Program-made: the position numbers and the translations under genes
Notes under the pieces: generated by a model
Told to the model about the DNA's origin: nothing
What the model saw: only the letters and a program-made list of their open reading frames with translations
The model's database searches: none
Source: Candidatus Pacebacteria bacterium CG10_big_fil_rev_8_21_14_0_10_44_54
GTDB lineage: Bacteria; Patescibacteriota; Microgenomatia; UBA1400; PJMF01
NCBI GenBank assembly: GCA_002772695.1
Contig: PFDI01000001.1
Span: 33,253-97,252 of the forward strand
Length of the DNA stretch: 64,000 nucleotides
Direction of reading: 5' to 3'
Shown: positions 2,741-61,120 of the stretch, piece by piece
Layout: each line of letters opens with the position of its first letter
Position numbering within the stretch: the stretch's first letter is position 1

Positions 2741-3534
2741 GCTTCTATTCTTGTACCAAGCACTGCTTTGCCCGCCACGGCTTTTGAAAGACTGCCGTGT
2801 TCAATACCATCAATAATAAGACCAGGGATACCTCGCTGCGCCAGCCCCAGTGTCTCTCGCACTTTGTGCAACATCCCACCGGTGACATCAATTCCTCCTG
2901 ATCCCTGCAACACTTTTGCGTATGTGGCAACATTGTTCGAATTTATAAGTGGAATTGTCTCACCATTTTCATCATACACGCCATTAGTTTGGCCGCAATG
3001 AATTACTCGTTTAATCTGATATTTTTTCTGTTTTAAAGCAACCGCAATATAAGTCAAAACTGTTTCTGTCGAGAAGATAGTGCAACCTTTTTCTTCATCT
3101 AGTATTTGGTCACCATATACAACTGGTAGTAACCCAAGAGAGAGCAGCTGTTCGATGCTCTCAGTAAAAATCTTGTTGAGAACAAAGTTTTTCGCTGTCA
3201 TCATACTCAGAGGACTGACGGAAACCGCCAGCACTCCCGCTGCAATCAATTCTTGCAATACTATATCGTTTAGCTGCCGTGCGGCGTTTGCCACTTCTAC
3301 AAATCCTTGTCTCGCTTCTGGGTGAACCAGGCCCTTGTGGGTCTGGTATTTTTTTGCCGGGACGTGACCAAAGGAGCCAGCACCATGTCCAATGATCAGC
3401 TGAGTTCCCGACTGGGTAGCTTTTTTTACTTCCGCCGCAATTGTTCTCAGTGCAACTTCTTTAACCGTGAATGGTTTTGTCTTATCAGTGATGAGAGAGC
3501 CACCAAGCTTGATAAAGGTTAGTGATTTTTTCAT
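2737..3534 (-). CDS. ipk: Isopentenyl phosphate kinase (amino-acid kinase superfamily)
   Basis: N-terminal FIKLGGSLITDK and GHGAGSFGH motifs typical of isopentenyl phosphate kinase. Has a 4-nt overlap with uppS downstream and with the ORF upstream, so translational coupling is likely. Confidence 0.65.
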   Translation of the reverse strand: MKKSLTFIKLGGSLITDKTKPFTVKEVALRTIAAEVKKATQSGTQLIIGHGAGSFGHVPAKKYQTHKGLVHPEARQGFVEVANAARQLNDIVLQELIAAGVLAVSVSPLSMMTAKNFVLNKIFTESIEQLLSLGLLPVVYGDQILDEEKGCTIFSTETVLTYIAVALKQKKYQIKRVIHCGQTNGVYDENGETIPLINSNNVATYAKVLQGSGGIDVTGGMLHKVRETLGLAQRGIPGLIIDGIEHGSLSKAVAGKAVLGTRIEA

Positions 3535-4154
3535 CGCAACTCACCATTCTGGACCAGGGCATTTAGGATATAAACTAACGATGGTCTTAATTTGCTTTCA
3601 TCATTCTTGACAAAATTGCGTACTTCTCCATCTGGAACTACTATCTTTTTCTGTCCTAGTTCTTTGATCTGATCCGCAGTCAATCGAATAATACCTATTT
3701 GCACCCTATAAAGAGATGGCTCCCCGCCATTTTTTTGCAGTACCGGAACATTCATGGGTAAAAGCTGAATTTGCGAGCCCTCGATGCTGAGCGATCTTTC
3801 CTCCAACAACTTGCGAACCAAAGCTTTGCCATACGAACCATTATCAGCTTCGTCCATGCCTCCGGAGACAGCTTCAAATTTATTGCCAATTGCCAGCATT
3901 TCAGATTTATCACCCAACACCCTTTCTACTTTGCCAGCGTTCTCTTTGGCAGACGGCACTATAATTAACTCTCTTTGCGGACCAATAAACACTGCTAACA
4001 CACCTTCTCTCTCTGGAATTCTTAAACTTTCTACTGTATTCATATGTCGTATATATCTAAGCACTCCATTCGGCGCAGCATCTCCCATAGCCCGCAGTCC
4101 CAGATTCCACCCTCTCACCCTATGTAGGCTAGCAGAGCTTTCGTGGGACAGCAT
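3531..4154 (-). CDS. Hypothetical protein co-operonic with ipk and uppS; possibly a Nudix-fold protein. True start is likely an internal Met near 4043.
   Basis: No cysteine. Contains a degenerate Nudix-box-like segment SGGMDEADNGSYGKALVRKLLEERSL (compare Gx5Ex7REUxEExGU). Overlaps the ipk start by 4 nt. Confidence 0.3.
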   Translation of the reverse strand: MLSHESSASLHRVRGWNLGLRAMGDAAPNGVLRYIRHMNTVESLRIPEREGVLAVFIGPQRELIIVPSAKENAGKVERVLGDKSEMLAIGNKFEAVSGGMDEADNGSYGKALVRKLLEERSLSIEGSQIQLLPMNVPVLQKNGGEPSLYRVQIGIIRLTADQIKELGQKKIVVPDGEVRNFVKNDESKLRPSLVYILNALVQNGELR

Positions 4155-5333: not shown

Positions 5334-5666
5334 GCTATTACCGACTGCAAACCCGGCGAAGGTACTGAAGGTATTGATCTTGGCAATTGTCTCCGCCTTA
5401 GCAACGATAGCGCAATCAAAGACGTCTACTCCGAACCGGCTTTCTTGGTCAACCTCATCGTTCGCAATGCATTCGTCGCCGCCGGTGTTATTTTGTTTTT
5501 AATGATTTTCTTGGCAGGATTTAAGTTTGTTTCGCAGGGCAAAAAAGGCATGGAAGAAGCCAAAAACATCTCCAAGTCTGTTCTCATCGGCGCAATCTTG
5601 ATGTTTTGTGCCTACTGGATTGTACAAATTGTCCAGCTTTTGACTGGTGTTGATGTAGGGCTGTAA
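5304..5666 (+). CDS. T4SS-pilin-like protein, paralog P1 (TrbC/VirB2-like two-helix topology). The ORF-track start at 5199 overlaps the sigma gene, so ATG 5304 is more likely.
   Basis: Short signal-like N-terminus MFGFLVPVAHA. Core reads ...LFLMIFLAGFKFVSQGKKGMEEAKN...IGAILMFCAYWIVQIVQLL, with a charged loop between two hydrophobic helices. Confidence 0.5.
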   Translation: MFGFLVPVAHAITDCKPGEGTEGIDLGNCLRLSNDSAIKDVYSEPAFLVNLIVRNAFVAAGVILFLMIFLAGFKFVSQGKKGMEEAKNISKSVLIGAILMFCAYWIVQIVQLLTGVDVGL

Positions 5667-15598: not shown

Positions 15599-16759
15599 AT
15601 GAAATATACTAGACACTTAGAAGCAAATCTGCTTTCTCATTTTTCCAACTACAAACAAGCAATCGTACTGCTTGGAGCACGCCAAACAGGTAAGACAACG
15701 TTGCTCAGGCGGCTGTTTCCAGATGCGCTCTACATCCTACTCGACAACGAGCAAACAAAAAATGTTCTTGAAACATATGACATCTCAACCTATAAGCAAG
15801 CTATTGGTCGCACCAAACAACTCATTATTGACGAACTTCACCTATTACATGACCCTGGGAGGGCCGTTAAAATCATCTACGATCAGGTCCCTGGTTTGCA
15901 ACTTATTGTCACCGGCTCATCCGCACTCCACATAAAAAACAACTCGACAGAAAGTATGGCGGGTCGAAAAATCGAATACAACTTATTTCCACTCACTTTT
16001 TCTGAGTATCTTGTGCAAAAAAATATAGAGACCGTCCTTAATCACTCTGTACTGACCAATGTACTAGAACAAACAACTCCTCCCAAGCATCTGTTCTCCC
16101 CATCAGGACTGCTCGAGCAGGTTCTACTTTACGGTTTGTATCCTGATGTGCTCAACCTACCAGAACCTCGACAATATCTACTCAATTTGGCTGAAAGCGC
16201 TATTTTTAAAGATATAGTCGAGCTAAACCTCATCGACAATCGCAGTAAAGCAAAATCGCTCCTTGAGCTACTCGCGTATCAGATCGGCAATCTTTGCAAC
16301 TACTCAGAGATCGGCGCCAGATTATCTCTAGATAGACGAACAGTAGAGCGATACATAGACATTTTTGAACAAAGTTTTATTGTATTTCGCATCTTTCCTT
16401 ATGCAAACAACAAAAGAAACGAAATAGGAAAAACGCCAAAAATTTACTTTCATGATTTGGGCCTGCGTAATGCTCTGATCGATAACTATGACTCCATCAC
16501 AGTGCGGTCGGATGCAGGCGCGCTGTTTGAAAATTTTATAATTGCGGAACTCAAAAAAAACATTTCTTATCAACAAAGTGATTTCTCACTCAATTACTGG
16601 CGGACAAATAATGGTGCTGAGGTAGATATTGTTCTCAGTAATAACCACACAGTTATTGGCGCAGAAGTTAAAATGCAGAGTGGTTCAGTTTCTACAGCAT
16701 TTACCAATCGCTATCCTGATGCAAAGACGCACGTTATAACCAGACATACTTTTTATTAG
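15599..16759 (+). CDS. AAA-family ATPase with C-terminal DUF4143 domain (COG1373-like)
   Basis: Walker A LLGARQTGKTTLL. Walker B-like LIIDELHLL. C-terminal DUF4143-like region (SEIGARLSLDRRTVERYIDIFEQSFIVFRIFPYANN...). Confidence 0.65.
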   Translation: MKYTRHLEANLLSHFSNYKQAIVLLGARQTGKTTLLRRLFPDALYILLDNEQTKNVLETYDISTYKQAIGRTKQLIIDELHLLHDPGRAVKIIYDQVPGLQLIVTGSSALHIKNNSTESMAGRKIEYNLFPLTFSEYLVQKNIETVLNHSVLTNVLEQTTPPKHLFSPSGLLEQVLLYGLYPDVLNLPEPRQYLLNLAESAIFKDIVELNLIDNRSKAKSLLELLAYQIGNLCNYSEIGARLSLDRRTVERYIDIFEQSFIVFRIFPYANNKRNEIGKTPKIYFHDLGLRNALIDNYDSITVRSDAGALFENFIIAELKKNISYQQSDFSLNYWRTNNGAEVDIVLSNNHTVIGAEVKMQSGSVSTAFTNRYPDAKTHVITRHTFY

Positions 16760-18833: not shown

Positions 18834-21800
18834 TTACTTAAAGATATTGGAAAAGTTAATCTGTTTTATTGTTCCGTCTACGATCGCTCTAACCCTTGAT
18901 GACTGTGAAAAACCTGCCTCTAATGCCTCGACTATAGCCTCTTGCTCTTCGTCAAAAAGAGTATTTTGTAATCCGTAAATCCATCTTTTTACCTCATTCA
19001 TCTCCTTGCCATTTCTCAGCTGTAAAATTGCGGAAGCGAAAGCAATTACATGAATCACTGCATCACGCACCTTGTCACCATTAAGAAAACCCGCCAAAAT
19101 CTCGGGGCCAAACTCAGGAAGAGTCGTTACAGCATATTTATCTTTTTTCTTTAATCCAGCAAGTTTTGATCTTGGAACACCTGAGACTGCAAAGGTTTCC
19201 TCTTCGGCTTTCAAAATTCCAGCGAGAAAATCATGAATATTTTTTGCATTATTGTAATAAGCTCTTATATCATCTTGCTGTGGCCTTAATGTAGAAAAAG
19301 GCATTAGTTCGTAATACAGCTCGCCATCCTCACCAACATAATCAGAAAAAGAAACCAGTTTACCTAAGTTGCCGTTCTCTTCAGGAGCGAACCTCTGGAA
19401 GCTCCCATCACCATTTCTTGACATAAAATACTTTAGGGGAGGTTGAAATATAGTAAATTTGCCTTGGTCATCTGGTTTAACGTCAATGAGTGGAAGCTCA
19501 ACAAGATACCAAAATCTATCATACAGCCCCTTCTCTATGAATCGTTCTTCGATTTTGCTTCTAACCTCTGAAGGATTGACTAGATTTGAAATAAATGTTT
19601 CTACAACACCTGACTTACCAACCACCTGCTCTGGAGCATCTAATGCATAATTTTTCTCTGCTCCCAACGCTCCAAAAAGCACTCTTGTTATAAAAGTGTT
19701 GTATCCATGAACTCCTTGTAGAATTTCTTTGTCAAGATAGTCTAACCAACGAAATGCATAAAAAATATTATCCGGAACAAACGAGCTACTCGGCGCCAAC
19801 CAAGCTTGATTCAGAAACAACACATGAAGCAAAAATGCTCGTTTAACGTGGTTCTCATTTATTCTGCTCTGGTATTTTTGATTAGTTCTTTCAGGAAGCG
19901 GGCTGCCTTTGCTTTTGGCAATTACAAGATCTTCTTCAAATTTGTTGTCCAATCTTCTTTGTTCTAATATCAACACCGTACGTCTAATTAAATCCATGTT
20001 GAAGTTCAGAGATTGTCCAGTTAGTCCAAACTCATCTTCATGATCTCCTCGATAAATTGCGTCTAAATGCCTCATAACTTGACCATACGCTGTCACGTTT
20101 ACTTCAACTTCTTTCGGGTTTCTGGTTTCCCAATCAGCCATCACAATCTTCCTCTTCTCCAGAACTGGATTTGTTTCAATTTCCTCTCGGTAAAGAACTT
20201 CTGCTGGTTTTCCCACCACACTAGTTGACCTTCTAATAAATTGTTCCGCTTGCTTTCCCTCAATCGCAAACAGATCGCTAAGAGCAAGGGGAAAGTCTTT
20301 AGGCACAACAGAATCGCCCGATCCCCAACCCATAATTCTTGAATTTACGCTTTGTTCTGTTAGATAAACCACCATTCTGAGACCTAAATCTGTTTTAAAC
20401 TCTTCAAAGTCGGCTACAAATTTAGCAGATTCATCTGGATGAATGGCTCCAACAATCCGACTAACTCTTGCAAAAATTCTCTGACCAAAAATAACATCCT
20501 TTACCTCATTTCCAACCAAGGCGACTGCGCCTTTATCATCACCCTCGTATGCGGTCATAGTATTGTTTGCGCACTCCTTTGTCTTTCGATAATCTGCTTT
20601 CAAAACTAATTGCTCAAGATCATTAATAGCGTTTTTGTCAAAACTCCTATCTCTTGCTTGGCGAATCGATTCGTACAAACTATCAAAAGTTTCCAAAGGA
20701 TTGTCTTCTTTTGTCATTAAGTACGGCGCCTCACTCTCAATTTGAGCAATCCTTAAAGATATATCGGAAACAAATTGCTCAAAATTCTCAATATTCTCAA
20801 GTGCCTTATTTCTTAGGTCTTTAAAAAGAGACTTTGCTCGCTCTATTTCAGCAGACAAAAGTGATGTTGTAGTGCTATCTTGTTTTACAAGAATGAGAAG
20901 TGTGTCAATTGCACTACCCAAGCTTTTCTCACGTTCAACAATACTTTGTTTGTCATAAACACCCACTCTCGCACTAAGAATCGCTTCTGCCTGAGCAGCT
21001 TCGCTTCTTAAAGAGATGATTTCATCTGATGCCTCCAAAATCGTTAAAATTTGGGCTTCTAGTTGAGATTTTGCAGTCAAGTATCCAGTTTTCCCTTTTA
21101 TATAAATTTCATTTAGGTGGTCAATTGCTTCAAGCCTATTTCTGACTGAACTAAAAAAACCATAGTCAAGATCTTCTAAATACCTTGAATAAAGTAGTCT
21201 TGCATCAACAAGTTTTTGCGTTAGATTTATTAATGAGTCAAGGTCGCCCACACTTTGCCCAGAAACTTGACTTAATACTTCAACACAAACTTTTTCTAAA
21301 TCTAAAGCAAAAACTGGGTGATCATCTTTTTTCCAGTTAGCTAAGTCAACGACTCCTACTAATTGAGACTCAATTTGAAACTTACTGTCTATTTCTTGAG
21401 CTACAGAGGAAATTGTTGTTCTAAGCTCAACCGAGACACGCTCATCATATTGAAAGTCTCTTATAGTTGCAAGAATTCTAGCAGCAGCTGAGATATCTTT
21501 TTCATCGATAGCAATCCTTATACTTCTTAGCCTGGATTCAATCAGAGTTTGCAATTGCTTTGGCTGCTCAAAATATTCGGACGCAACATTTCTTTGCTCC
21601 GATACTGCGCTTCCATCGCTAGAAACAAGATTTTTTTCTAAAAACTCTGCTATCAATAAATTTAGCAATCCCTCTTCCTCATAAAGTAGTTGTTCAGTTG
21701 TCCAAATCTCGTCCCCGTCCAGCTCTTGAAAAAATCCAAGAGATGCTGCGCCCGCAATTTCATTAAGCTTGTCAAGAATTACTCCTATTCTTTCTGCAAC

Positions 21801-22058
21801 TTGTTGCTGAATGGACTCAAGCAACTGGCCAATATCGCCCCCAGAAAGAAGTTTTTGTGCTGCTGCTGCTGCTGCAATATATATTCTCTTAGTTTCAGGA
21901 AAATCCGTGAGTCCCTCTACAATTTTCCGTTGTGTTGAGTGATCAGTTGTGAGTTGCAAAGAATTAACGGATGCCTCCAATCGCCGCACAGATTCTTCCA
22001 CCAGTTCTCTGCGATCATACTGTCGATGACCTAATACACCAACTTCATTAGTTTCCAT
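18834..22058 (-). CDS. Large (1074 aa) predicted cytoplasmic, alpha-helical/coiled-coil protein of unknown function, inside the T4SS locus
   Basis: Long uninterrupted ORF with no transmembrane segment and no P-loop. Contains an in-frame Ala6 run from a (GCT)6 repeat. Confidence 0.5.
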   Translation of the reverse strand: METNEVGVLGHRQYDRRELVEESVRRLEASVNSLQLTTDHSTQRKIVEGLTDFPETKRIYIAAAAAAQKLLSGGDIGQLLESIQQQVAERIGVILDKLNEIAGAASLGFFQELDGDEIWTTEQLLYEEEGLLNLLIAEFLEKNLVSSDGSAVSEQRNVASEYFEQPKQLQTLIESRLRSIRIAIDEKDISAAARILATIRDFQYDERVSVELRTTISSVAQEIDSKFQIESQLVGVVDLANWKKDDHPVFALDLEKVCVEVLSQVSGQSVGDLDSLINLTQKLVDARLLYSRYLEDLDYGFFSSVRNRLEAIDHLNEIYIKGKTGYLTAKSQLEAQILTILEASDEIISLRSEAAQAEAILSARVGVYDKQSIVEREKSLGSAIDTLLILVKQDSTTTSLLSAEIERAKSLFKDLRNKALENIENFEQFVSDISLRIAQIESEAPYLMTKEDNPLETFDSLYESIRQARDRSFDKNAINDLEQLVLKADYRKTKECANNTMTAYEGDDKGAVALVGNEVKDVIFGQRIFARVSRIVGAIHPDESAKFVADFEEFKTDLGLRMVVYLTEQSVNSRIMGWGSGDSVVPKDFPLALSDLFAIEGKQAEQFIRRSTSVVGKPAEVLYREEIETNPVLEKRKIVMADWETRNPKEVEVNVTAYGQVMRHLDAIYRGDHEDEFGLTGQSLNFNMDLIRRTVLILEQRRLDNKFEEDLVIAKSKGSPLPERTNQKYQSRINENHVKRAFLLHVLFLNQAWLAPSSSFVPDNIFYAFRWLDYLDKEILQGVHGYNTFITRVLFGALGAEKNYALDAPEQVVGKSGVVETFISNLVNPSEVRSKIEERFIEKGLYDRFWYLVELPLIDVKPDDQGKFTIFQPPLKYFMSRNGDGSFQRFAPEENGNLGKLVSFSDYVGEDGELYYELMPFSTLRPQQDDIRAYYNNAKNIHDFLAGILKAEEETFAVSGVPRSKLAGLKKKDKYAVTTLPEFGPEILAGFLNGDKVRDAVIHVIAFASAILQLRNGKEMNEVKRWIYGLQNTLFDEEQEAIVEALEAGFSQSSRVRAIVDGTIKQINFSNIFK

Positions 22059-22138
22059 ACCCCAAATTATACCCCAGCCAGACCAGGTGTATCAAGCGCC
22101 CAACCACCAACCACAACTGCAGGTATAATCACCCCCAC

Positions 22139-22534
22139 ATGACTTCGCAATCGACCAACACCACTGCTGACGACTGGATTGCTGCCACCGTCCTACGCGG
22201 CGACCAAACTGGCCGTACTATCAACTTCCCTAGCCTCAATCTAGACGCCGCCCTCTGGCCAAAGGCCCTACAGGCACAACCTGGTGTGTATGCTTCGCTC
22301 GTGCAGATTGCAGGCAGGCGGTACAAAGGCGCGCTCTACTACGGCCCAAGGTTAGTAAAAAAAGAAGTACACAACGTGCTTGAGATCCATGTTTTTGATT
22401 TTGCTGAGGAAATCTATGACCAGACAATCGAGTTTCAGATTGGTGCGTTTGTGCGACCACCCCTAGATTTTGACTCGCTCGATGGGCTCAAGCAGCAGTT
22501 GGCGGAGGATGTGGCGAGGGTTGTGGGCTTATAA
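22139..22534 (+). CDS. Monofunctional riboflavin kinase (RibF C-terminal-domain type)
   Basis: GRTINFPSLNL...PGVYASLVQIAGRRYKGALYYGPRLVKKEVHNVLEIHVFDFAEEIYDQTIEFQIGAFVRP matches the riboflavin kinase domain. Only 131 aa, with no FMN-adenylyltransferase domain. Confidence 0.7.
   Translation: MTSQSTNTTADDWIAATVLRGDQTGRTINFPSLNLDAALWPKALQAQPGVYASLVQIAGRRYKGALYYGPRLVKKEVHNVLEIHVFDFAEEIYDQTIEFQIGAFVRPPLDFDSLDGLKQQLAEDVARVVGL
22487..22520. repeat. Direct repeat copy 1 (34 bp) at the 3' end of the riboflavin kinase gene
   Basis: ctcaagcagcagttggcggaggatgtggcgaggg. It matches 23480-23513 at 31 of 34 positions. Confidence 0.8.
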
Positions 22535-23116
22535 CAAGTGGCGCCAATAATTACCCCTGTCGACCTGTTCAACAGTGCTTCCCGGATATGCGTTCAAGAA
22601 ATCTCGAGGTATTTTTGCAGTTCGTTTTGAACTCCACTTGAACTCAAAGCCTGAAAGCTTTCCGTCTCGTTCTTCAATATAATCTATTTCTTTTTGGTCA
22701 TATGTACGCCAGAAATAGCGATTGCTGAAAATTCTAGAGTGGTTAGCTTTTTTTAGAAACTCAACCACGCAAAAATTTTCCCACAGCACGCCCACATCAT
22801 TGCGCAGCGACAGTGGTGCAAATGCCTGCAAAAGTGCGTTTCTCGCCCCCACATCATAAAAGTAAATCTTCTGTGTTTTGCCGACTTCTTTCCGCAGATT
22901 GCGACTAAATCCGCTCAAAGTAAAAACGACAAACGCTTGCTCTAACACAGAGATATACGACTGTACAGTTCTTCTATCAATACCGATAATTGTTCCTAGC
23001 TCTGCGTATGAAACCTCATTGCCGACTTGCAACGCTAACAGTCGCAACAAATCAATTATCACTTTAGAGCGCTTAACACCCAGATACATCAGTGCGTCTT
23101 TGTAATTGTGACGCAA
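22529..23116 (-). pseudogene. Truncated DUF4143 paralog. It is C-terminal-domain only and lacks the AAA/P-loop half.
   Basis: LLRLLALQVGNEVSYAELGTIIGIDRRTVQSYISVLEQAFVVF...KIYFYDVGARNALL aligns with the C-terminal half of the 15599-16759 protein. No Walker A is present. Confidence 0.5.
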
Positions 23117-23119
23117 ATA

Positions 23120-23527
23120 TCAAATAAACCTCAATTGTAATTTTTTATCCATCGCAGATGCAAGCGAAAGCAGTGTGCTAATCGTCGGGTTATAACTGCC
23201 TGACTCAATCTTTGTAATTGTTGTTCTTGGCATAGCAGCTTTTTGCGCCAACTCCGCCTGGGTTAAGCCCAGCTGCTTTCTCAGATCGCGCAATTGCAAA
23301 AGCAAGTCATATCTATAGACCTCATTTGCAACGCGTTCTTCTTGAATTGGGGTAAAATGACCAAATACCTCCGCTAGCGAAATGGCACTCTTCTTTACGG
23401 TTTTCTTCACTAGTAAATTGTTCCTTAAAAAGAACATTTTGTCAAGAACGCGTAAATTGGTGTCTATAAACTTGCAGAACTCAAGCGGCAGTTGGCGGAG
23501 GATGTGGAGAAGGCTAAACCAACCCAA
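23120..23527 (-). CDS. XRE-family helix-turn-helix transcriptional regulator. True start is likely internal, near 23437.
   Basis: C-terminal HTH LRKQLGLTQAELAQKAAMPRTTITKIESGSYNPTISTLLSLASAM. Confidence 0.55.
   Translation of the reverse strand: MGWFSLLHILRQLPLEFCKFIDTNLRVLDKMFFLRNNLLVKKTVKKSAISLAEVFGHFTPIQEERVANEVYRYDLLLQLRDLRKQLGLTQAELAQKAAMPRTTITKIESGSYNPTISTLLSLASAMDKKLQLRFI
23480..23513. repeat. Direct repeat copy 2 (34 bp). It encodes a remnant riboflavin-kinase C-terminal peptide in the same frame as the downstream EamA gene.
   Basis: ctcaagcggcagttggcggaggatgtggagaagg. The frame reads ...ELKRQLAEDVEKAKPTQDKKTSHY-stop, parallel to the RibK end ...DGLKQQLAEDVARVVGL. Confidence 0.8.
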
Positions 23528-23659
23528 GATAAAAAAACATCACACTACTAGAAACAATCATCTGTTCAAGCTACACTACAACTTCTGAAGTTCAAACAAC
23601 CGCTCCCCACCGGCTCGCTGCTGATCGTCCTCGCCGCAACGCTCTGGGCGCTGGATGGG

Positions 23660-24502
23660 TTGCTCAGAAGAAGCCTCTACTCACTGCCGCCTATTACCAT
23701 CGTTTTTCTCGAGACACTCATCGGTAGTATTATTCTGTTGCCTGTTTTTGTCCGCCAGCTAAACAAAGAAAAAATCACCCGGCTCGGCCTGGTTCAGGCA
23801 GCGGCGGTGGCTCTCCTCAGTGGTTTGCTTGGCACACTCTGGTTTACGGCTGCGCTGGTTAAGGTCAACTTTATTTCGCTCAGTGTGGTGTTTTTGCTGC
23901 AGAAACTCCAACCACTGTTTGCCATTTCCACTGCGCGGATTTTCCTCAGAGAATCACTGCCAAAATCATTTGTTATTTGGGCCGGAGTCGCCTTGGTGGC
24001 TGCCTATTTTGTCACCTTCCCAGGCGGAGTAGTGAACCTCAACACTGGCGCTGGCACTGCGCACGCTGCCCTCTTGGCCCTGGGTGCCGCGGCGGCTTGG
24101 GGCTCAAGCACAACACTGTCAAAATCTCTGCTTACCAAACAATCTGGTGCCATGAGCACCAGCTTGCGCTTTTTTATTACTACCGCTCTGGCTGGTGGTG
24201 CGCTGTTACTATTTGGACAATCGTCGAGCATTGCTCAAGTCACTCCGCCACAAATAGGCATGCTCACGCTTATCGCAGTCTCGACTGGCATGGTGGCTCT
24301 CTACATCTACTACCAAGGACTCAAGCGGACGCAAGCTAAAGTAGCAACTATTCTAGAGCTTACCTTTCCGCTACTGGCAATTGTTATTGATGCGTTTGTC
24401 TACAAAATCTTCCTCTCGCCAATCCAACTCATTGCTGCTGTAGTATTGCTGTTTGCGATACTGCGGGTGGGGAAAACAAAATTGTTCTTTGATGACTGCT
24501 GA
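23660..24502 (+). CDS. EamA/DMT-family transporter (10 transmembrane segments)
   Basis: Two EamA-like halves of hydrophobic helices. The frame is open upstream to the stop at 23549-23551 (LIVLAATLWALDG...), so the real start is uncertain (TTG 23660 or earlier). Confidence 0.6.
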   Translation: MLRRSLYSLPPITIVFLETLIGSIILLPVFVRQLNKEKITRLGLVQAAAVALLSGLLGTLWFTAALVKVNFISLSVVFLLQKLQPLFAISTARIFLRESLPKSFVIWAGVALVAAYFVTFPGGVVNLNTGAGTAHAALLALGAAAAWGSSTTLSKSLLTKQSGAMSTSLRFFITTALAGGALLLFGQSSSIAQVTPPQIGMLTLIAVSTGMVALYIYYQGLKRTQAKVATILELTFPLLAIVIDAFVYKIFLSPIQLIAAVVLLFAILRVGKTKLFFDDC

Positions 24503-24602
24503 TTGCTCTGGATTTCTATCTCGATCGTGCCGTTTTTCGTCTGAGAAATGATTACTTTGGCGTGATCGAGCTTCAGGGCTCGACGCAGTGCAATGGGGTT
24601 TG

Positions 24603-24631
24603 CATTAGATTTTTATTTTCCCATTAGATTT
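24603..24631 (+). promoter_or_regulatory. Two direct 10-bp repeats CATTAGATTT, spaced 19 bp apart, upstream of the giant gene. A TATAAT -10 follows at 24661-24666.
   Basis: gCATTAGATTTttattttccCATTAGATTTcgc, then cacgTATAATcacaaggtATG. Confidence 0.3.
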
Positions 24632-24674
24632 CGCATTTCCTGTCATCCCCCACAACCACGTATAATCACAAGGT

Positions 24675-27600
24675 ATGGCGGATTCTGATAGAGATCAAAC
24701 TACCACAACAACGGGATCTGATTTAAAAGACCAAGCTCGACAAGCATTTGGCTCGATTTTTTCATCAGCAAACATCATTCCACTCGACAAGGTTAAGCGC
24801 CTTGGTGTGTATAGGCCAGAAGAACGACCGCAGCTGGCAGCTGTCTTTGATCGACTCACCAAATTTATAAATGCACAGTATCGCTTGATAGATAACCAAA
24901 AAATAATCATTAGGTTGCTCGATCAAGGCGCGGTAGAGTTAACTACCGAAGACCAGCGACAATACAGTGAAGTACCAGAAGCAGAGCGACGCACTCGCCT
25001 CTTTATGGCCGACCTCATTCAGCTTGCCAGTGACATCGGTAAAACACTCTGGAGCTGGGAACAAAGCGAACAATTGCGCGAATTTGGCGAGGTTGATGAG
25101 TGGTATTGGCTCAAAGAGCTCGGCGAAGAGGCTGGTACTAACCAGATTTCAAATTTTTTTGCTAAAGAAAAAATTGCCAAACTGCAACGCGAGCTCTTCG
25201 CTGATATTTGGCATGCATTCAAAGTCGGCGAACCAGAACCAACTGACGAACCAGCGGCAGCTGTCCCCGATGCTTCTGGCGCTACAGTCCCTGGCGAAAA
25301 ACTCGAAGCAATAACAGCTGCCTATGCTGCGAGTGGTAAGGGAGGAGATTCCGACGCTCAAACAGATACAAGCGAAACAGTGACGGCCAAAGAAAGAACT
25401 CCTGCAGAGGAGCTTGGTATTAGAGAGCGGCAAATAGAGCAACAAACCCTACTTATCAAACTACAACAAGAACTCTTTGAAAATATTGTTGGGGACCTAA
25501 CCACAAAAGAGATCGATCAGATGTGGAGTGATCTCGAACCTGGTTTGATCGCAGAAATTACTGATTTTTTTGCTACTCACCCCGAATTGCGAGAAAAGTT
25601 GGCTGTGGCATCGGCTGGTGACAGTCTAGTTCGAAGCGAAATTTATCAACAATTTTTACTTGCTTTACACACAAATGCAAATCTTATAAATAGGTTGACG
25701 CAAATGTATACAGCAGCCAGCGACCGAGCGGTGGTTGTCGGCCCTAATCGAGCTGTTGAACTAGAAAAAAGCCTCAAGCAAGCTGTAGATATTCTCGGAG
25801 AGAACCAAGTTTCGCGGATTATCTCTCATATTGAACAAACAGCGACAATTGCCCAAATCCCCAAGACAAAACCTGCTCCAATTACTACCGAAGCTTCGCC
25901 GCTTGACCAACAAGTATTGCTAGAACCCGAGAGCAAACTGCAGAAGTCTGCTTTTGAGTACCTCACTTCACACGCAGAGTACGAAATATTTCGCAAAACG
26001 CGCATTTTTTTGCACCAGCTTTCGCCAGAGCTTGATCTATCTGCCCAAAACATTCACACAGCGATTGCCGAATTTGCCCGACAAGAGACACTTAGCCTAA
26101 CCACCACCCAACTTCGTTTGGCCCAAGCAGATCCAGCATATCTCAGATCACTTTACGAGCGCTTTGCCAGCAACCTACAGAGACAATATCCAGAAATTAC
26201 CAATTTTCTCATCGACTATGGCTGGTTTATTTCTCAGACAAGCCCCGCTGAGGCAGCCCAGTTTGAACATATCTACCGCAATGGCATTTTGGGCAAAACA
26301 CTGTCTGCCAAAGATGCGCTCAAAACAGAGTTGCAAAATACCCTCAAGGGTGCTGCAACTGCCGTAGTCATCGAAAACACGATCACAACCATCGACGCGA
26401 TGATTCTTGAGTTTGGGGACAAGGCGCCAGAGTTTGTGGAGAGCATATCTATCGATCGACTTGAGCTCGCTTTTGGTCTAGCCAGCGGCACGCTGACAAG
26501 CGAAACAGCTCCGCTCTTTCTGACAACTTTGCGCGGTCAAATGCAGTTGCGTCTCACAGAACTGCGCATGGCTGGTAATCCAGAATTTTTGGCAGCTGGT
26601 GGTTTCCAGGGCGGCGTGCTACCAACCACACCAAAACAAACTGAGACTGTGTTGGCGGCAGTACCACTGTCAAGACAACTGCTAACCACCACACAATCAG
26701 ACACAGAAACAACAATAGCAGCCCTCGGTGCCCCGACGAAGCCTGTTGAAAAAAACCATGCTGCTTGGTGGAGTTCACTGCCCAAGGACGCACAGCTGCA
26801 AGTGTACGCGAAACTCATGGGTTCTGCAGCAGCTGGTGAGTATGCTGCGTTTAGCGCCGTGCCGTTCCCAGATAAATTGTCTGCCTTGAGCAATACTGAG
26901 ATTCGCAAAATGTTGGTTGGAATTTGGTCTGAGTCTCCCCAATTAACGCCAGATCAAACAGCACAATTTCAAACAATTGATCGTGAGCTTGAAACACTCG
27001 ATCGCCTCGTCATTGCACAAGTCAAAACAGCTGAGCTACACAAACAAGTTGTGGCGGCAATCATGCAAGACATCAAGGATGAACAAGCAGCAATAATTGC
27101 TGCTCAACTTGGTCTGCAGGTTGCAGAAAAGGCTTCGGCTCAAGCAACAATTATCGCAGCGGTCAATTCTGGCCAAGCTCCGATTCCAGCTCAAAATCTG
27201 GTAACCATGAATGAAGCACTGGTGCAAGGCGGCTCAAATGCTTTAGTAGGTGCTGATCCGTATGCTAGCAATTTTGCGCAACAATTTGCTGGTCGAGCTG
27301 GTTCGCTTGCGAGCTCGCTGCGATCTGCAGCTATGGAAAAACTCAAAAAAAAGTTGGCAGGCAATCTTTTGAAAGGAGCTGCTACGAAAGCAGGGCTGGC
27401 TGCAACCGGTGTTGGCCTGCCTGCTGCAGCAATTCTCACGCTGCTACAGAATAAAACAGCAAGAAAAATTGTGCTTGGTGGTGGAGCTCTGCTTGTTGCA
27501 AAAACACTATATTCATTGACGACATATGGTGGAGCTCTCGGAGCCATAGCTGGGGGGCTTATTGGAGGACCGATTGGCGCACTGATTGGAGCAAATGTTG

Positions 27601-29621: not shown

Positions 29622-30833
29622 TTGCTTCATTACCTCTACAATGAAATAACCCGTATGCGAGAACATCCGATCCCACAAGACATAACCGGTTACCGCTTTC
29701 ACATCGTTGGCAGCATGACGCTCAAGCAGTTTGGGGAGCTCGCACTTGGCGCCATAATTGCTTTTATTATTTATAGCACCAATCTTTTTCCTGTCATCAA
29801 GTGGCCGCTCATGTTTGTCGCCTTTGGCTTGGGGGCGTTGGCAGCGTTTGTCCCGATCGCAGAGCGTCCAATCGACCACTGGATCATCACGTTTTTTAAA
29901 GTGTTGTACAAGCCAACACAGTACTATTGGAAACGAAAAGAAAAAATTCCCGATGTATTTTTGTTCAAACCAGGCAAAATTACCGAGGCTCCAGAAGATG
30001 AGGTCGACCTCACCCCGCTGCGTCGACAGCGAATTAGAGAATACCTCTCCTCCACACAATACGAGACTCCTAGCGACGACCTATTGGTAGAAGAACGTGC
30101 TCAAATCCAAGAAATTACAAAGTTATTTGGCGCCACCCATGTACGTCCAAAAGATATGTCAAGCACACAGCCAAAAATAACCCAACGACCCAACCTCACA
30201 ACTCGGGTAAGAGAAATGAGACAAGATGCTTCATTTGACCAAGTCTTTACTATATTTTCACAAGGAGATGCTCGGTCCGCACCAGTAGAGAAGGCTCGGG
30301 GCGTGCAAGACTTGGTTCAAGAAACGACTAATAGCAACAAAAAGTCTATGTACCTTACTACAGAACAGGTGGCGCAAAACATAGAAGTGCCCGAAACCGA
30401 CTCTATTGCTGTAGAAAAAAACCAAGCAAACAAATCTCTAGAGAGAGCAACTGCTTCGTCTGCACCAGAAGAGCAGTTTTTTATTGCCGATCAAAGCGAA
30501 GCAGATTCTGGACCTGCCGCAGCGGGAGCGGCCACTTACAACACGAGTCTGCCATTTCCAGACAAACCAAGCGTGCCAAATAAGTTGGTTGGCATGGTTC
30601 TCTCTGCACAAAACGAGCTGATTCCCGACGCAATTGTAGAAATTCGCACAGCAAGCGGCTCGATTGAGCGCGCGGTCAAAAGCAATGCTTTGGGTCAATT
30701 TTTTATTACCACTCCTCTGGCAAACGGCGAGTATGTGATTGAGGCAGAAAAAGATCGGCTGCAATTCCCAGCCCAAAGTTTTGTTTTGACTGGCAAGCCA
30801 GTTGATCCAATCGAAATCAGAAGCAGCGCATAA
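29622..30833 (+). CDS. PrgI/VirB3-like T4SS membrane protein with a C-terminal carboxypeptidase-regulatory-like beta-sandwich extension
   Basis: Two closely spaced transmembrane helices near the N-terminus (LALGAIIAFIIYSTNLF, WPLMFVAFGLGALAAFVPI), directly upstream of VirB4. The C-terminus (LVGMVLSAQNELIPDAIVEIRTASGSIERAVKSNALGQFFITTPLANGEYVIEAEKDRL) resembles a CarboxypepD_reg-type fold. Confidence 0.45.
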   Translation: MLHYLYNEITRMREHPIPQDITGYRFHIVGSMTLKQFGELALGAIIAFIIYSTNLFPVIKWPLMFVAFGLGALAAFVPIAERPIDHWIITFFKVLYKPTQYYWKRKEKIPDVFLFKPGKITEAPEDEVDLTPLRRQRIREYLSSTQYETPSDDLLVEERAQIQEITKLFGATHVRPKDMSSTQPKITQRPNLTTRVREMRQDASFDQVFTIFSQGDARSAPVEKARGVQDLVQETTNSNKKSMYLTTEQVAQNIEVPETDSIAVEKNQANKSLERATASSAPEEQFFIADQSEADSGPAAAGAATYNTSLPFPDKPSVPNKLVGMVLSAQNELIPDAIVEIRTASGSIERAVKSNALGQFFITTPLANGEYVIEAEKDRLQFPAQSFVLTGKPVDPIEIRSSA

Positions 30834-33909: not shown

Positions 33910-33976
33910 CACTCGTTTTCTCACTTGCTAATTGTGGAAAAGACTGTGTATAACTAAGTGCTCTGCCCCAGTTATT

Positions 33977-35458
33977 ATGGAATCTCGTACGCTCTCACCA
34001 GAAGAAACTTCGCGCGTGTGGCAACAATGTTGTGCACAACTCAAAAAAGACCTAAGTGCGGCTGTTTATAACACGTGGATTGTGGCAAATCCTCTTACCC
34101 ACCTAGAATATATTGATCTGTCTCGGGCAGTTGCAAACATTACAAGCCCAACGGCATTTCACTCAACCAATGTCAAAAAAAACTTTCATACCCAATTAAC
34201 ACAAACTTTGTCTGAACTCACTCAAAGACAAGTAGAAATTTCCTACTACATTGGTTCGCTGCCACAAAACACTGCTGGAGTAATAAAAACAATTAAACCG
34301 GGCAACAACCCTTCCTCAAGACCAATCCTCACCAAACCAGAGTTTTCGCCGTCTCCTCGAGTTGAAGAGCTCTTTTCTCCAAATACAATCGAGTCTGCTG
34401 GTGTGGATCGGATTGCACTAAAAAGTAAACAAATTGGTTTGCGTACCGACTTCACGTTTGAAACTTTTGCCGTCTCAACAAGTAATGAAATGGCACACGC
34501 AGCGGCTACAGCAGTCTCAAATCAGCCAGGAAGCTCTTATAACCCCCTCTTTCTTTATGGTGGCGTCGGCGTCGGCAAAACCCACCTGATGCATGCTATT
34601 GCCAATAATATTCTACAAACAAACCCACAGTCTCGCATGATTTACTGCACTGGTGAGGAGTTTACTAATGAAATTGTTCAGGCGATTCAAACTAAAAGAG
34701 CGGGTGTTTTCAAAGATCGCTATCGCTCAGCACAAGTTTTGCTTATTGATGATATCCAGTTTATCGCTGGAAAAAATGCAGTACAGGAAGAATTTTTTCA
34801 CACGTTCAACGCCCTAACCAAAAAAAGTCATCAAATTGTGCTCACCTCAGACCGACCCCCACAAGAAATTCGACTACTCGAAGATAGGCTGCGGTCGAGA
34901 TTTGAAGCCGGACTTATGATTGATATCCAAGAACCGTCGTTTGAACTGCGAACGGCCATAATTTTACTCAAAAGCCAAGCTCAAAATATAACAATTTCCA
35001 TTGATCTTGCCAAAAAAATTGCTGAAACTGTTGATTCTGCTCGAAGAATTGAGGGTATTATCACCCTGATTCGATCGGCGGTTGAGTTGCAAGGTCGAAA
35101 AATTGATCTTGAACTAATCGAACAGATTATAAAAACTTCCCAACCACTTGAGCAGCGAGGCGTGCTGAAAAAATCTCCTAGTGAAGTCATCAAAACTGTC
35201 GCGACTCACTTTTCTGTCAAACAATTAGCAATCAAAGGCAAAAGTAGAGTAAAGAATCTGGTTACAGCGCGTCATATTGCTATGTATCTTCTCAAAACAG
35301 AGCTTTCACTCCCATTAGTAGAAATTGGTCGTTGGTTTGCAAACCGTGATCACACAAGCGTACTACATGCCGTCAAAAAAATTGAAGCAGAACTCTTGCG
35401 AGACACACAATTACAGCGAGAAATATCATTTATTCGCAAGTCTCTTCAAACCACCTAG
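33977..35458 (+). CDS. dnaA: Chromosomal replication initiator DnaA. ATG 33977 is preferred; the ORF track begins at TTG 33932.
   Basis: AAA+ motif GGVGVGKTHLMHAIAN. Sensor and box motifs. C-terminal DNA-binding domain (VTARHIAMYLLKTELSLPLVEIGRWFANRDHTSVLHAVKKIE). DnaA-box-like TGTGGAAAA and TGTGTATAA at 33934-33954, just upstream. Confidence 0.9.
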   Translation: MESRTLSPEETSRVWQQCCAQLKKDLSAAVYNTWIVANPLTHLEYIDLSRAVANITSPTAFHSTNVKKNFHTQLTQTLSELTQRQVEISYYIGSLPQNTAGVIKTIKPGNNPSSRPILTKPEFSPSPRVEELFSPNTIESAGVDRIALKSKQIGLRTDFTFETFAVSTSNEMAHAAATAVSNQPGSSYNPLFLYGGVGVGKTHLMHAIANNILQTNPQSRMIYCTGEEFTNEIVQAIQTKRAGVFKDRYRSAQVLLIDDIQFIAGKNAVQEEFFHTFNALTKKSHQIVLTSDRPPQEIRLLEDRLRSRFEAGLMIDIQEPSFELRTAIILLKSQAQNITISIDLAKKIAETVDSARRIEGIITLIRSAVELQGRKIDLELIEQIIKTSQPLEQRGVLKKSPSEVIKTVATHFSVKQLAIKGKSRVKNLVTARHIAMYLLKTELSLPLVEIGRWFANRDHTSVLHAVKKIEAELLRDTQLQREISFIRKSLQTT

Positions 35459-35711
35459 TCCTTGTTGATAACTTTGGTGATATCTTTGTATTACTGTTAA
35501 TAAAGTTGGTATAAAAATCGATAATAATTACTACGTGTTCACAAGTACTCACAATTGTTCCCTACAAATTCACAAGCTTTTCCCCGCAGTTGTACATTTG
35601 TTATCCACACCTTACTACTTGGCTAAAACACTCTGTTATACCCAAAGTATCTGCTCTCTACTACTACTATGACTACTAATTAGAACTGGATAAATACAGT
35701 ACAATGCACAC
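35459..35711. other. Putative oriC: the AT-rich dnaA-dnaN spacer with DnaA boxes
   Basis: Perfect TTATCCACA at 35601-35609. Box-like TGTTCACAA (35536-35544), CTCACAAT and TTCACAAG. AT-rich stretch 35464-35534. Confidence 0.6.
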
Positions 35712-36815
35712 ATGAAGTTTTTAGTTTCCAAAACAACATTTCACACAACACTACAAAAGTTGCAGCGAGTACTTCCAAATAAACCACAACTACCTACTTT
35801 GGCTGCAATTCATATTTTGGTAAAAAAAAATCGAGTAATACTTACAGCCACAGACCTGTATCTAGGTATTCAAGCGCCACTTGAATCTCAGATTGAATCA
35901 GAGGGAGTGGTTGTAGTGCCGGGTAAGTTACTTCTAGCTGCCGTCAGTTCGTTTCCGGAAGGCGAGATTGTGGTAACAGAAACAGCCGGAACACTAAACC
36001 TAGTGTCTCGCGCAAGTAAGGTGAAGTTGCAAACCCTCTCACTCGAAGAATATCCAGAATTTCCCGAGGTAAGCGGAGAAAGTGTTTTGCTTGCCACAAG
36101 TGATTTACTTTCTGTTGAACAGTATGTACTACCAAGTGTTTCAAAAGACATTACTAGACCAGTGCTCACGGCGGTACAACTCGAATTGACAACAACTACT
36201 TTTCGCGCCGTTGGTACAGATGGTTTTCGTTTATCTGTGTTTGGTACAACCACCGAGTCAGAACACGCAAAGACACTACTAGCCCCCGCCCGTACACTCC
36301 TTGAATATATTAAACTTGCCCAGGCAGAGGAAGTATCCAATGTAGAGCTGCTCGTTTCGAGTAAGCTACAACAAGTATTGGCAAAAATTGGCGACGTATT
36401 GGTATTTTCTCGACTTGTTACGGGGGAGTATCCACCATTCGAACAGATTATTCCCAGTGAAAGTACGACAGAAGTTGTTTGTGAAGCCGATGAGTTGCTC
36501 GAGCAGGTGCGACGAGCACACGTGTTAACCAGCGGTTCTTCACATATAGTGCAGTTTCGTATTTCACCTGAATTAGTTGAGATTTCTACCCCGACGACAA
36601 CAGAGGGCTCGTTTGAAGGAGTGTTAACCTCAGCAAAAGTGACAGGAAATCCATTGAAAATAGCCTTTAATGCTGTGTATTTACTTGATATGTTAAAACA
36701 ATTTTCATCACAAGAATTGCGTCTTGGTATGACTGAGGCACTAAAACCAGTGATTTTTCGCTCTCAAACGCTTTCATCGTTTCTCTACGTCGTTATGCCA
36801 TTTCGAGTGGTATAA
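35712..36815 (+). CDS. dnaN: DNA polymerase III beta sliding clamp
   Basis: 367 aa with a three-domain clamp-like sequence. Canonical position after dnaA. Confidence 0.8.
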
Positions 36816-59811: not shown

Positions 59812-60525
59812 TTGCTAGTCATGAAACGCGGCTTTTCTCTCATAGAGGTACTCATTATAGTTGCTATTATTGGATTGCTTTTGACAGTCTTGTATTTTTT
59901 TTCTTTTCCACATCTGGCTCGAGGTCGCGACGGCAAGCGTTTGAGCGATCTCGATAAGTTGAAGGTTGTGTTTGAAGATTATTATAATGACAAGGGCTGC
60001 TACCCCCCAAGGAATACGCTAGAGCTGTACTGCGGCGGTGGTGGCAGCACTCTTCTCGACGCCTACATTCCAAAAGTCCCGTGTGACCCTCTCACAAAAG
60101 GGCCATACCTCTATAATGTTTTGAGCGATGACGACGTCAACCTCGACTGTCCCGTTCATGGATATAGGATTCTGGCTAATCTAGAGAGAGATGGGAGTGA
60201 GGCTAGTAATGTGATCAACTGTGGCGGCGAATATGGCTGTGGTTTTGGTGAAGATGGGGTCTTCTATGACTATGGTATCGCACAAGGTGCTGCAGTTTCG
60301 CTCTATGGTGCCGTCGCAGAATTGGAGGGTGGTGATGAAGAAGGAGGTGGTGGTGATGAAGAAGGGGGAGGCGAGGGTGGTTGGGAAGATTGGTGCTGTG
60401 CAGTGAGCACAGGAGTATGCACGGACATAACCGGAACACCAACCGCCTGCACGGGTGATCCCTTGGGAAACAGAGATTATCATGGTGCTGGCTCACAAGC
60501 ATCGTGTCTATCAAATTGCCAATGA
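59812..60525 (+). CDS. Type IV pilin-like protein (prepilin-type N-terminal cleavage/methylation domain) with a Gly/Glu-rich repeat and a Cys-rich C-terminus
   Basis: N-terminus MKRGFSLIEVLIIVAIIGLL (G-F-x-x-x-E class III signal). GGDEEGG tandem repeat. Six or more Cys residues in the C-terminal 60 aa. Confidence 0.7.
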   Translation: MLVMKRGFSLIEVLIIVAIIGLLLTVLYFFSFPHLARGRDGKRLSDLDKLKVVFEDYYNDKGCYPPRNTLELYCGGGGSTLLDAYIPKVPCDPLTKGPYLYNVLSDDDVNLDCPVHGYRILANLERDGSEASNVINCGGEYGCGFGEDGVFYDYGIAQGAAVSLYGAVAELEGGDEEGGGGDEEGGGEGGWEDWCCAVSTGVCTDITGTPTACTGDPLGNRDYHGAGSQASCLSNCQ

Positions 60526-60571
60526 TAGATCACAATTGTATAAACTATGGTACTAGGTATATGATGTTGGT

Positions 60572-61120
60572 ATGTTGCAGAAAGGTCGCTTTTCTTTGTG
60601 TGGTTTTACTTTGATTGAGCTTTTGGTGGTGATAGCTATTCTTGGCATTTTATCAACAATTGGTATTGGCTCGTTTCTCTCAAGTCAGATGAAGTCTCGA
60701 GACGCTCGTCGCAAAACAGATCTCAAAAATATAGCTATAGTGCTTGAGACGTACTATAACGATAAGAATTCCTATCCAACAGCAAGTTCGGGCAAAATAG
60801 TTGGCTGCGGTGCGGCAGGTACTGAGCCATGTTCTTGGGGTCAGGAATGGGCAGGAAATGGCGCCTTGTATATGGCAGTATTGCCCGACGATTCTTCTGC
60901 CTACAACTATACATATGTGTCAGACGGAGTTTCGTATGCTTTGTATGCACGACTTGAAAATACAGGCGATCCCAAAGCAGCCAAGGTAGGCGATGTGCCG
61001 GGTGGGTATACAGGAATTATTTGCGAAGGTACGACCACCCGCTGTAATTATGTAGTAGCAAGTAGTAATGCAACCCTCCCAGGTATTGTTGCTGATGGTT
61101 CAGAAGATCCAGAAGAATAA
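60572..61120 (+). CDS. Type IV pilin / pseudopilin-like protein
   Basis: N-terminus GFTLIELLVVIAILGILSTIGIGSF prepilin motif, then TDLKNIAIVLETYYNDKNSYP. Confidence 0.7.
   Translation: MLQKGRFSLCGFTLIELLVVIAILGILSTIGIGSFLSSQMKSRDARRKTDLKNIAIVLETYYNDKNSYPTASSGKIVGCGAAGTEPCSWGQEWAGNGALYMAVLPDDSSAYNYTYVSDGVSYALYARLENTGDPKAAKVGDVPGGYTGIICEGTTTRCNYVVASSNATLPGIVADGSEDPEE

Follow-up and report, generated by a model that had tools for sequence, protein, structure and literature searches.

In rhs, cdiA and type VI secretion system (T6SS) arrays, a gene has a constant 5′ part and an acquired 3′ end with adjacent cargo. The old 3′ end persists downstream as a stub with a conserved piece, repetition gives rise to arrays, and no dedicated recombinase is known. 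Jackson et al. (2009, PMC2935791) proposed homologous recombination with circular intermediates for the tips of Rhs, and Kirchberger et al. (2017, PMC5361080) proposed illegitimate recombination facilitated by homology for the effector/immunity arrays of T6SS. A comparable arrangement is described here for the riboflavin kinase gene, ribK, of Candidatus Pacebacteria bacterium CG10_big_fil_rev_8_21_14_0_10_44_54, a member of the Paceibacteria within the Candidate Phyla Radiation (CPR). The window, i.e., the whole stretch of DNA that was analysed, comprises 64,000 nucleotides of contig PFDI01000001.1 (positions 33,253 to 97,252), in which about 1 kb of DNA between ribK and an EamA transporter gene is flanked by two copies of the ribK 3′ end. 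By analogy, the ribK locus would work like the displacement arrays of Rhs, contact-dependent inhibition (CDI) and T6SS, but is not a member of them: its anchor is a small housekeeping gene with a variable tail without known function, its cargo consists of independent toxin-antitoxin (TA) and defence modules in either orientation rather than an immunity gene for a toxin tip, and its host is a CPR bacterium.

Prophage e14 of Escherichia coli is about 15 kb long and has its own integrase. The insert in the window, unlike e14, is about 1 kb long and contains no recombinase. As in the window, e14 (and phage 21) integrates at the 3′ end of a gene, icd, and supplies an alternative end, with the gene left intact; the displaced end (icdC) lies beyond the element, and the two ends differ by several substitutions (PMC4759930). 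The e14 crossover takes place in a fixed 11-bp core (PMC4759930), whereas the stubs at the ribK site start at different positions.

Integron arrays and integrase-less attC clusters resemble the ribK site in holding compact cassettes, many of them TA modules, at one site. In integron arrays, these cassettes carry one or two genes and are stacked with the newer ones proximal. Unlike integrons, the ribK site has as its separators ribK stubs without hairpins rather than attC sites, its cassettes lie in both orientations and its boundaries are not uniform; no intI or other integrase gene was found among the scanned open reading frames (ORFs) of the window. The parallel with integrons has also been drawn for T6SS arrays (PMC5361080). 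Defence/TA hotspots, including Xer-dependent pdif modules, likewise resemble the ribK site in having variable small cargo between core genes. The cargo of such hotspots changes from one close strain to the next, with no recombinase linked to it. Unlike pdif modules, the window repeat is neither palindromic nor dif-like, and the hotspot is marked by the flanking gene's own stubs. In this CPR clade, the cassettes gathered at ribK, with displaced stubs of the gene's end among them, represent a new form of a known process; the feature in the window itself is a decayed scar.

An insert between two ribK ends

Related contigs are referred to here by working labels (L001, L002 and so on). In L025 (Paceibacterota CG_2015-01t_44_17), the ribK of which is 63% identical to that of the window, only 12 bp separate the ribK stop codon from the GTG start of EamA, and the gene order is that of the window: a large minus-strand protein, ribK, EamA, and a large plus-strand protein. 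Because this junction is empty, the window segment is, on comparison of the two sequences, an insertion into the ribK–eamA junction. In more distant relatives, ribK and EamA are adjacent in the reverse order, with no extra pieces of ribK. The GC content of the insert (22521–23479) is 0.416, compared with 0.528 for ribK and 0.515 for EamA. The features of the insert and its borders are as follows:

22139–22534, plus strand: ribK, riboflavin kinase, 131 amino acids, intact (Pfam Flavokinase, E 2.5e-26)
22487–22520, plus strand: repeat copy 1, the present ribK 3′ end (...LKQQLAEDVARV)
22529–23116, minus strand: DUF4143-only ORF, C-terminal half of an AAA_14-DUF4143 ATPase (Pfam DUF4143, E 1.3e-39)
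23120–23410, minus strand: XRE/HTH_3 gene, orphan higA-type antitoxin, 96 amino acids (Pfam HTH_3, E 2.6e-15)
23417–23445, minus strand: higBA-type promoter/operator (-35 TTGACA at 23445–23440; -10 AACAAT at 23422–23417)
23480–23513, plus strand: repeat copy 2, a start-less stub from the displaced ribK 3′ end
23514–23551, plus strand: tail of the displaced ribK end (EKAKPTQDKKTSHY) with the stop codon TAG at 23549–23551; its AACCAACC motif is also present in the L001 ribK tail

The two repeat copies (CTCAAGCAGCAGTTGGCGGAGGATGTGGCGAGGG and CTCAAGCGGCAGTTGGCGGAGGATGTGGAGAAGG) are identical at 31 of 34 positions and are offset by 993 bp. With up to 3 mismatches allowed, the window contains no other match to the 34-nt repeat, and 100 shuffles yielded zero chance matches. 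Copy 1 forms the last codons of ribK, the last 6 nt of which overlap the stop codon of the convergent DUF4143 fragment. Copy 2 reads ...ELKRQLAEDVEKAKPTQDKKTSHY up to its TAG and matches the C-termini of ribK homologues in alignment; the ribK protein of the window was aligned with 13 homologues. Its homology to other ribK alleles starts at about 23475, slightly ahead of the repeat, which corrects the earlier coordinates.

A first-pass annotation, made from the letters of the window and a list of their ORFs only, had described 34-bp repeats around a cassette inserted into the 3′ end of the riboflavin kinase gene and had suggested looking for an uninterrupted ribK–eamA junction in relatives. The coordinates and identity of its repeats hold, as does its assignment of copy 1 to the end of ribK, and the uninterrupted junction is that of L025. 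Instead of the same arrangement with diverged repeats, which would have pointed to an ancient structure, relatives have an empty junction or other cassettes, and the shuffles do not bear out a coincidental similarity of the repeats. Copy 2 is indeed a remnant of ribK without a Met start and in frame with EamA, as had been stated, yet it does not run straight into EamA: the TAG at 23549–23551 divides them.

The identical ribK protein (P0001) is encoded by 16 contigs and is annotated in metagenome-assembled genomes of Candidatus Pacebacteria. Ten of these contigs were fetched; all have the same arrangement and are at least 99.9% identical over the region, and on this identity the ten are best counted as one lineage.

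The tails of ribK proteins, of 6–20 residues, contain no domain and vary freely among homologues. At two of the three positions at which the window copies differ, the bases of both copies recur in ribK ends or stubs of other genomes. The ribK ends nearest to copy 1 are those of L002 (37/41) and L216 (36/41), and when copy 1 is extended by its tail (GATGTGGCGAGGGT), those 14 nt are the same as in the L216 ribK end. Copy 2 (GATGTGGAG...) is nearest to two displaced stubs, L001_3 and L005_1. Copy 1 with its tail is of the L216/L002 type and copy 2 is of the type of the L001_3/L005 stubs; judged by these bases, the two window copies resemble different ribK allele classes.

Comparison of the window with L001 (alignment by eye) revealed that their ribK genes are near-identical for about 110 nt and then far more divergent over the last 90 nt, with 78% identity over the last 74 nt. 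Recombination inside ribK can be seen directly in this drop in identity. A mosaic test was applied to this drop in order to place the window's own crossover, but the breakpoint is not assignable to the window lineage, because L001 had its own displacement. There are no inverted repeats at the termini of the insert (22521/23479) and no hairpin or attC-like structure in the repeat regions, the folding of which is no better than that of shuffles on either strand (z-scores -0.6 to +1.3). No Rfam family (e.g. FMN riboswitch) was found over 21800–24800.

The XRE gene and the DUF4143 fragment are the only ORFs of the insert; they share one frame on the minus strand and are separated by a single stop codon. 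The longest XRE ORF extends from 23120 to 23527, but the true start is probably the GTG at 23410, and the resulting gene call of 96 amino acids is also present in L016–L018. L222 has an intact Gp49+XRE pair, and its antitoxin shares 72% identity with the XRE protein of the window. Upstream of the window XRE gene, the sequence (TTGACAAAATGTTCTTTTTAAGGAACAAT, about 23445–23417, minus strand), with an operator palindrome TGTTC..GAACA at 23419–23436, closely matches the promoter/operator before the toxin gene in L222, L223 and L224. Directly behind this promoter, the window has GTG AAG AAA ACC GTA and then the antitoxin sequence; in alignment, these first XRE codons (VKKTV) correspond to the beginning of the Gp49/HigB toxin in relatives with an intact pair (L222: VRKTI). 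Thus, with the toxin's start codons fused to the antitoxin behind the kept promoter, an in-frame deletion appears to have removed the toxin gene, and the antitoxin is now an orphan. Of a higBA module, the XRE unit retains the antitoxin and promoter/operator but, apart from its first codons, no toxin ORF, so it is best classed as a decayed higBA-type type II TA module.

The DUF4143 ORF, probably a pseudogene fragment, gave no Pfam match to the AAA_14 P-loop domain and corresponds to positions 184–373 of the 375 of the PADLOC profile PDC-S01. At 15599–16759, the window encodes a full ATPase with both PDC-S01 domains (AAA_14 P-loop and DUF4143), and the fragment shares 37% identity with its C-terminal half. 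The nature of the two opposite-strand genes, and the paralogy of the fragment to this ATPase, had been recognized in the first-pass annotation; with the toxin gone, the ATPase halved and no recombinase in the Pfam scan, its view of the cassette as decayed also stands. The full ATPase is followed by a 585-amino-acid protein without a Pfam match, and an AbiEi/AbiEii pair lies at 664–1927.

The nearest longer relative of the fragment is P0025 (305 amino acids, 81% identical). L215, a contig of 1186 bp from a sample with a neighbouring ENA accession, is 99.9% identical to 22670–23455 (786 nt). The identity ends at 22669/22670; beyond this point, L215 has a different DUF4143 C-terminus and AT-rich DNA that was unmatched by other fetched sequences. 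A donor configuration, with a full-length ATPase convergent with ribK, was sought, but the nearest relatives of the fragment (P0025 in L214 and P0024 in L215) are not beside ribK.

Cassettes and ribK stubs in relatives

The contents of the junction in relatives are as follows:

L222: ribK, intact Gp49 (HigB-like) + XRE pair, EamA
L002: ribK, HepT/MNT, 77-amino-acid gene remnant, EamA
L216: ribK, AbiEii/AbiEi, HEPN/MNT, AAA_14-DUF4143 ATPase
L001: ribK, internally deleted ATPase, HepT/MNT, HEPN/MNT, full ATPase, internally deleted second ribK, XRE remnant, EamA
L005/L022: ribK_A, HepT/MNT, HEPN/MNT, DUF4143 remnant, AbiE, full ATPase, ribK_B, pair of 77 and 138 amino acids, EamA

By these contents, the ribK–eamA junction is a lineage-specific insertion hotspot, with arrays of three to five modules in L001 and L005/L022. 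The ATPases at ribK junctions match the PADLOC candidate defence family PDC-S01. A unit of a minus-strand ATPase, a spacer of about 90 bp with the palindrome TTGTAGTTTGTCAAGCTACAA, and ribK recurs (L001 2615–2653 and 5429–5467; L005 5919–5957), and the ATPase–ribK pair may travel as a block.

The boundaries between these cassettes are marked by pieces of ribK. L001 has ribK 3′ stubs at 2736–2782 and 3424–3478, in addition to the internally deleted second ribK at 5474–5650. L005 has stubs at 2820–2909 (90 nt) and 3770–3791 (22 nt), and the two complete ribK genes of L005/L022 are mutually 73% identical. The L001 stub at 2736 and the HepT/MNT genes behind it share 88% identity over 690 nt with the ribK end and HepT/MNT genes of L002; in L001, a newer ATPase unit lies between this stub and ribK, which argues that new DNA enters beside ribK and that older ends are pushed outward. 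The L005 stubs are closer to the ribK ends of the window/L001/L002 clade than to either ribK of L005 itself, and therefore arrived with imported cassettes.

The extent of the stubs ranges from none in L222, through 22, 34, about 47, 55 and 90 nt, to whole genes, although later deletions could have shortened some. Several junctions cut genes: a C-terminal DUF4143 remnant abuts the 22-nt L005 stub, and L001 contains a 3′ remnant of AbiEii and the internally deleted ATPase. Illegitimate joins or deletions would give junctions of this kind. The signs of 3′-end displacement (a constant gene body, alternative ends, and stubs beside acquired cargo) are found with one stub in the window, and with two or three stubs and a second ribK in L001/L005.

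In L222, the cassette has taken the place of 6 nt present in L025, and no repeat flanks it. Mismatches between L222 and L025 number 13 in the nearest 400 nt to the left of the cassette, 13 in the nearest 200 nt to the right, and 3 in the next 780 nt; import of the cassette by flanking homology is directly visible in this clustering. GTCAA, which is directly repeated at the two ends of the L222 cassette, was considered as a possible crossover site and rejected, as the flanking bases do not fit (by eye). Gp49+XRE cassettes with a closely similar promoter/operator are also found at other core-gene junctions in other CPR genomes, again without flanking repeats: at 4001–4649 in L223, near tsf, and at 4001–4617 in L224, between an M23 peptidase gene and rho, which in the window are only 3 nt apart (55353/55357).

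The repeat core (CARTTGGSGGARGATGTGG) was also searched for as a candidate phage attP: its 14 matches in viral contigs had no similarity outside the pattern, and none of them is an attP candidate. Among 96 matches in metagenome contigs, the only related ones are known L005-type loci (L129, L152, L200), and the rest look like chance.

Proposed displacement of the ribK end and other explanations

From the scars at these junctions we infer that displacement of the gene's 3′ end by recombination anchored in ribK, along the lines proposed for Rhs tips and T6SS arrays, is the best fit, with a probability of about 0.6. The ancestral state would have been ribK and EamA as adjacent genes. DNA from a related strain, bearing small TA/defence genes and, at one end, its own last codons of ribK, would have arrived, and its ribK end would have recombined with the resident ribK through their shared homology; at the other end there would have been an illegitimate join, unless a single crossover had taken in the DNA as a circle. 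The incoming copy 1 would now complete ribK, and the resident end (copy 2, including its tail and its stop codon) would have been displaced about 1 kb downstream to become a non-coding stub before EamA. The cargo would then have decayed, the higBA-type module losing its toxin and keeping the XRE antitoxin and promoter, and the AAA_14-DUF4143 ATPase shrinking to its C-terminal half. Repeated displacement, together with deletions and exchange between strains, could have produced the multi-stub arrays of relatives, in which deletions would trim redundant pieces.

Several points weigh against displacement by recombination. Neither a recombination intermediate nor a donor configuration was observed among the sequences examined. 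The 34 nt of homology left in the window are short for RecA-type recombination, unless the stub was once longer. The argument from allele classes consists of three variable positions and short tails. As the own-species contigs are at least 99.9% identical, they offer no polymorphism by which to time or polarise the event. The junction of XRE with DUF4143 is also present in a second context, L215, so that the window cargo has a multi-step history. Finally, a sequence-specific enzyme could be the reason why several lineages have repeatedly used the last ~90 nt of ribK.

One alternative is site-specific integration, in which the ribK end would be the attachment site for a tyrosine or serine recombinase encoded elsewhere, and the cassettes would be small integrative elements with an attP that mimics the ribK end. 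Direct repeats flanking the insert, one of which completes ribK, an empty site in L025, insertions inside the last ~90 nt of ribK in several lineages and, in relatives, tandem arrays with repeated att-like stubs all speak for it, and e14 at icd has the same outcome by means of its 11-bp core and alternative 3′ ends (PMC4759930). All stubs lose their mutual similarity just past ...GAGGATGTGG, which also counts in its favour; however, a loss of similarity after GATGTGG is to be expected anyway, because ribK tails vary among orthologues. Furthermore, no recombinase is encoded in the insert or among the 29 window ORFs scanned (Pfam), the 5′ ends of the stubs vary widely between loci, truncated genes adjoin the stubs, the repeats do not fold into hairpins, no related match to the repeat core exists among the hits in viral contigs, and higBA cassettes with the same promoter occur at unrelated junctions without flanking repeats. 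The att-site integration offered in the first-pass annotation thus described the outcome well, in that incoming sequence completes the ribK 3′ end, but the site-specific recombinase that it entails has no counterpart in the insert or among the scanned window ORFs, and site-specific integration is considered unlikely.

A broader proposal, that the ribK end is a dedicated capture site at which a Paceibacteria clade stacks TA/defence mini-cassettes lacking recombinases by means of an enzyme acting in trans (an unlinked recombinase, an Xer-like host system or the DUF4143 nuclease-ATPase), is more doubtful again.

The AAA_14-DUF4143 protein itself, with its nuclease-like C-terminal domain, could be the mobiliser, cutting near the ribK end and being copied in by repair in the manner of a free-standing homing endonuclease gene. 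The family belongs to the PD-(D/E)XK nuclease superfamily, a survey of which reportedly mentions DUF4143. ATPases of this family or their fragments are beside ribK or its stubs in the window, L001, L005 and L216, and the unit of ATPase, ~90-bp spacer and ribK recurs. However, there are occupied junctions without such an ATPase, i.e., L222 (higBA only) and L002 (HepT/MNT); the ATPases adjacent to ribK are from different sub-lineages (34–39% identical); the family matches PDC-S01, a candidate for defence; and homing alone does not duplicate its target. A role for this protein as the mobiliser is therefore very improbable.

An even smaller chance is given to duplication of the target site by a transposable element, its transposase having since been lost; a duplicated target had also been entertained in the first-pass annotation. 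Direct repeats around a segment of about 1 kb with a GC content below that of its surroundings would suit such an element, but 34 bp is far beyond the usual length of a duplication, and the copies differ at three positions, at two of which each base is known from other ribK alleles; nor are there terminal inverted repeats (22521/23479) or a transposase ORF in the insert, and stub lengths in relatives are very different. The notion that nothing was inserted, the arrangement being ancient and the repeat a chance match or local duplication, has in its favour the presence of the arrangement in all own-species contigs, but is hardly credible given that these contigs are at least 99.9% identical and hence one lineage, that shuffles gave no chance matches, that the GC content of the insert differs from that of its flanks, and that the empty junction of L025 refutes it.

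The EamA gene and what the junction means

Downstream of the displaced ribK end are the following features:

23552–23584, plus strand: spacer from the displaced ribK stub to the EamA start; aligns with the pre-EamA sequence of L002 and, more loosely, of L025
23585–24502, plus strand: EamA/DMT (drug/metabolite transporter) gene (Pfam EamA, E 7.1e-31; synteny), ancestral downstream neighbour of ribK
24514–24597, minus strand: MazE-type antitoxin remnant (tblastn, 86% to amino acids 15–42 of the L025 MazE gene)

The start of EamA is the CTG at 23585, which is aligned with the GTG start in L002 and L025. The first ATG, GTG or TTG is at 23660, within the first transmembrane segment (TM1). EamA is probably mis-started by gene callers that begin at or after 23660, as these cut off TM1. 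Either EamA has a rare CTG start, or the gene was damaged after the insertion split it from ribK. EamA is now 1 kb from ribK, with opposite-strand DNA between, and a search of its upstream sequence revealed no sigma-70-like promoter. In every relative examined (including L021 and L026–L030), ribK and EamA are adjacent genes, in either order. Possibly, they form a pair for riboflavin uptake and phosphorylation; RibN-type DMT transporters are known, although NCBIfam gave no support for this EamA protein as a riboflavin transporter.

The MazE remnant sits between EamA and a gene for a 1448-amino-acid protein, where L025 has an intact MazE/PIN pair (Pfam); L222, with flanks 96–98% identical, is without the pair. 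On this comparison, the far side of EamA looks like a second cassette hotspot with a decayed TA module. A tandem 19-nt direct repeat (CATTAGATTTTTATTTTCC / CATTAGATTTCGCATTTCC, 79% identical) lies at 24603–24640, just upstream of the 1448-amino-acid gene. Elsewhere, the window encodes a PrgI-like protein (29622–30833), dnaA and dnaN (33932–36815), and pilin-like proteins with N-terminal methylation motifs (59812–61120); the ribK hotspot is about 10 kb from dnaA.

For annotation, the ribK stub and the DUF4143 fragment are not genes, and the XRE gene encodes an orphan antitoxin. The locus illustrates the gain and loss of defence and TA genes in very small CPR genomes: at one core-gene junction, cassettes accumulate, are swapped between strains and decay, while every arrival comes with a replacement end that keeps ribK intact. 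The stubs of ribK record the order of arrival, and could help to reconstruct gene flow among uncultivated lineages. If capture were driven by an enzyme, the junction would be a new kind of cassette platform, integron-like, in which the separators are stubs of a housekeeping gene.

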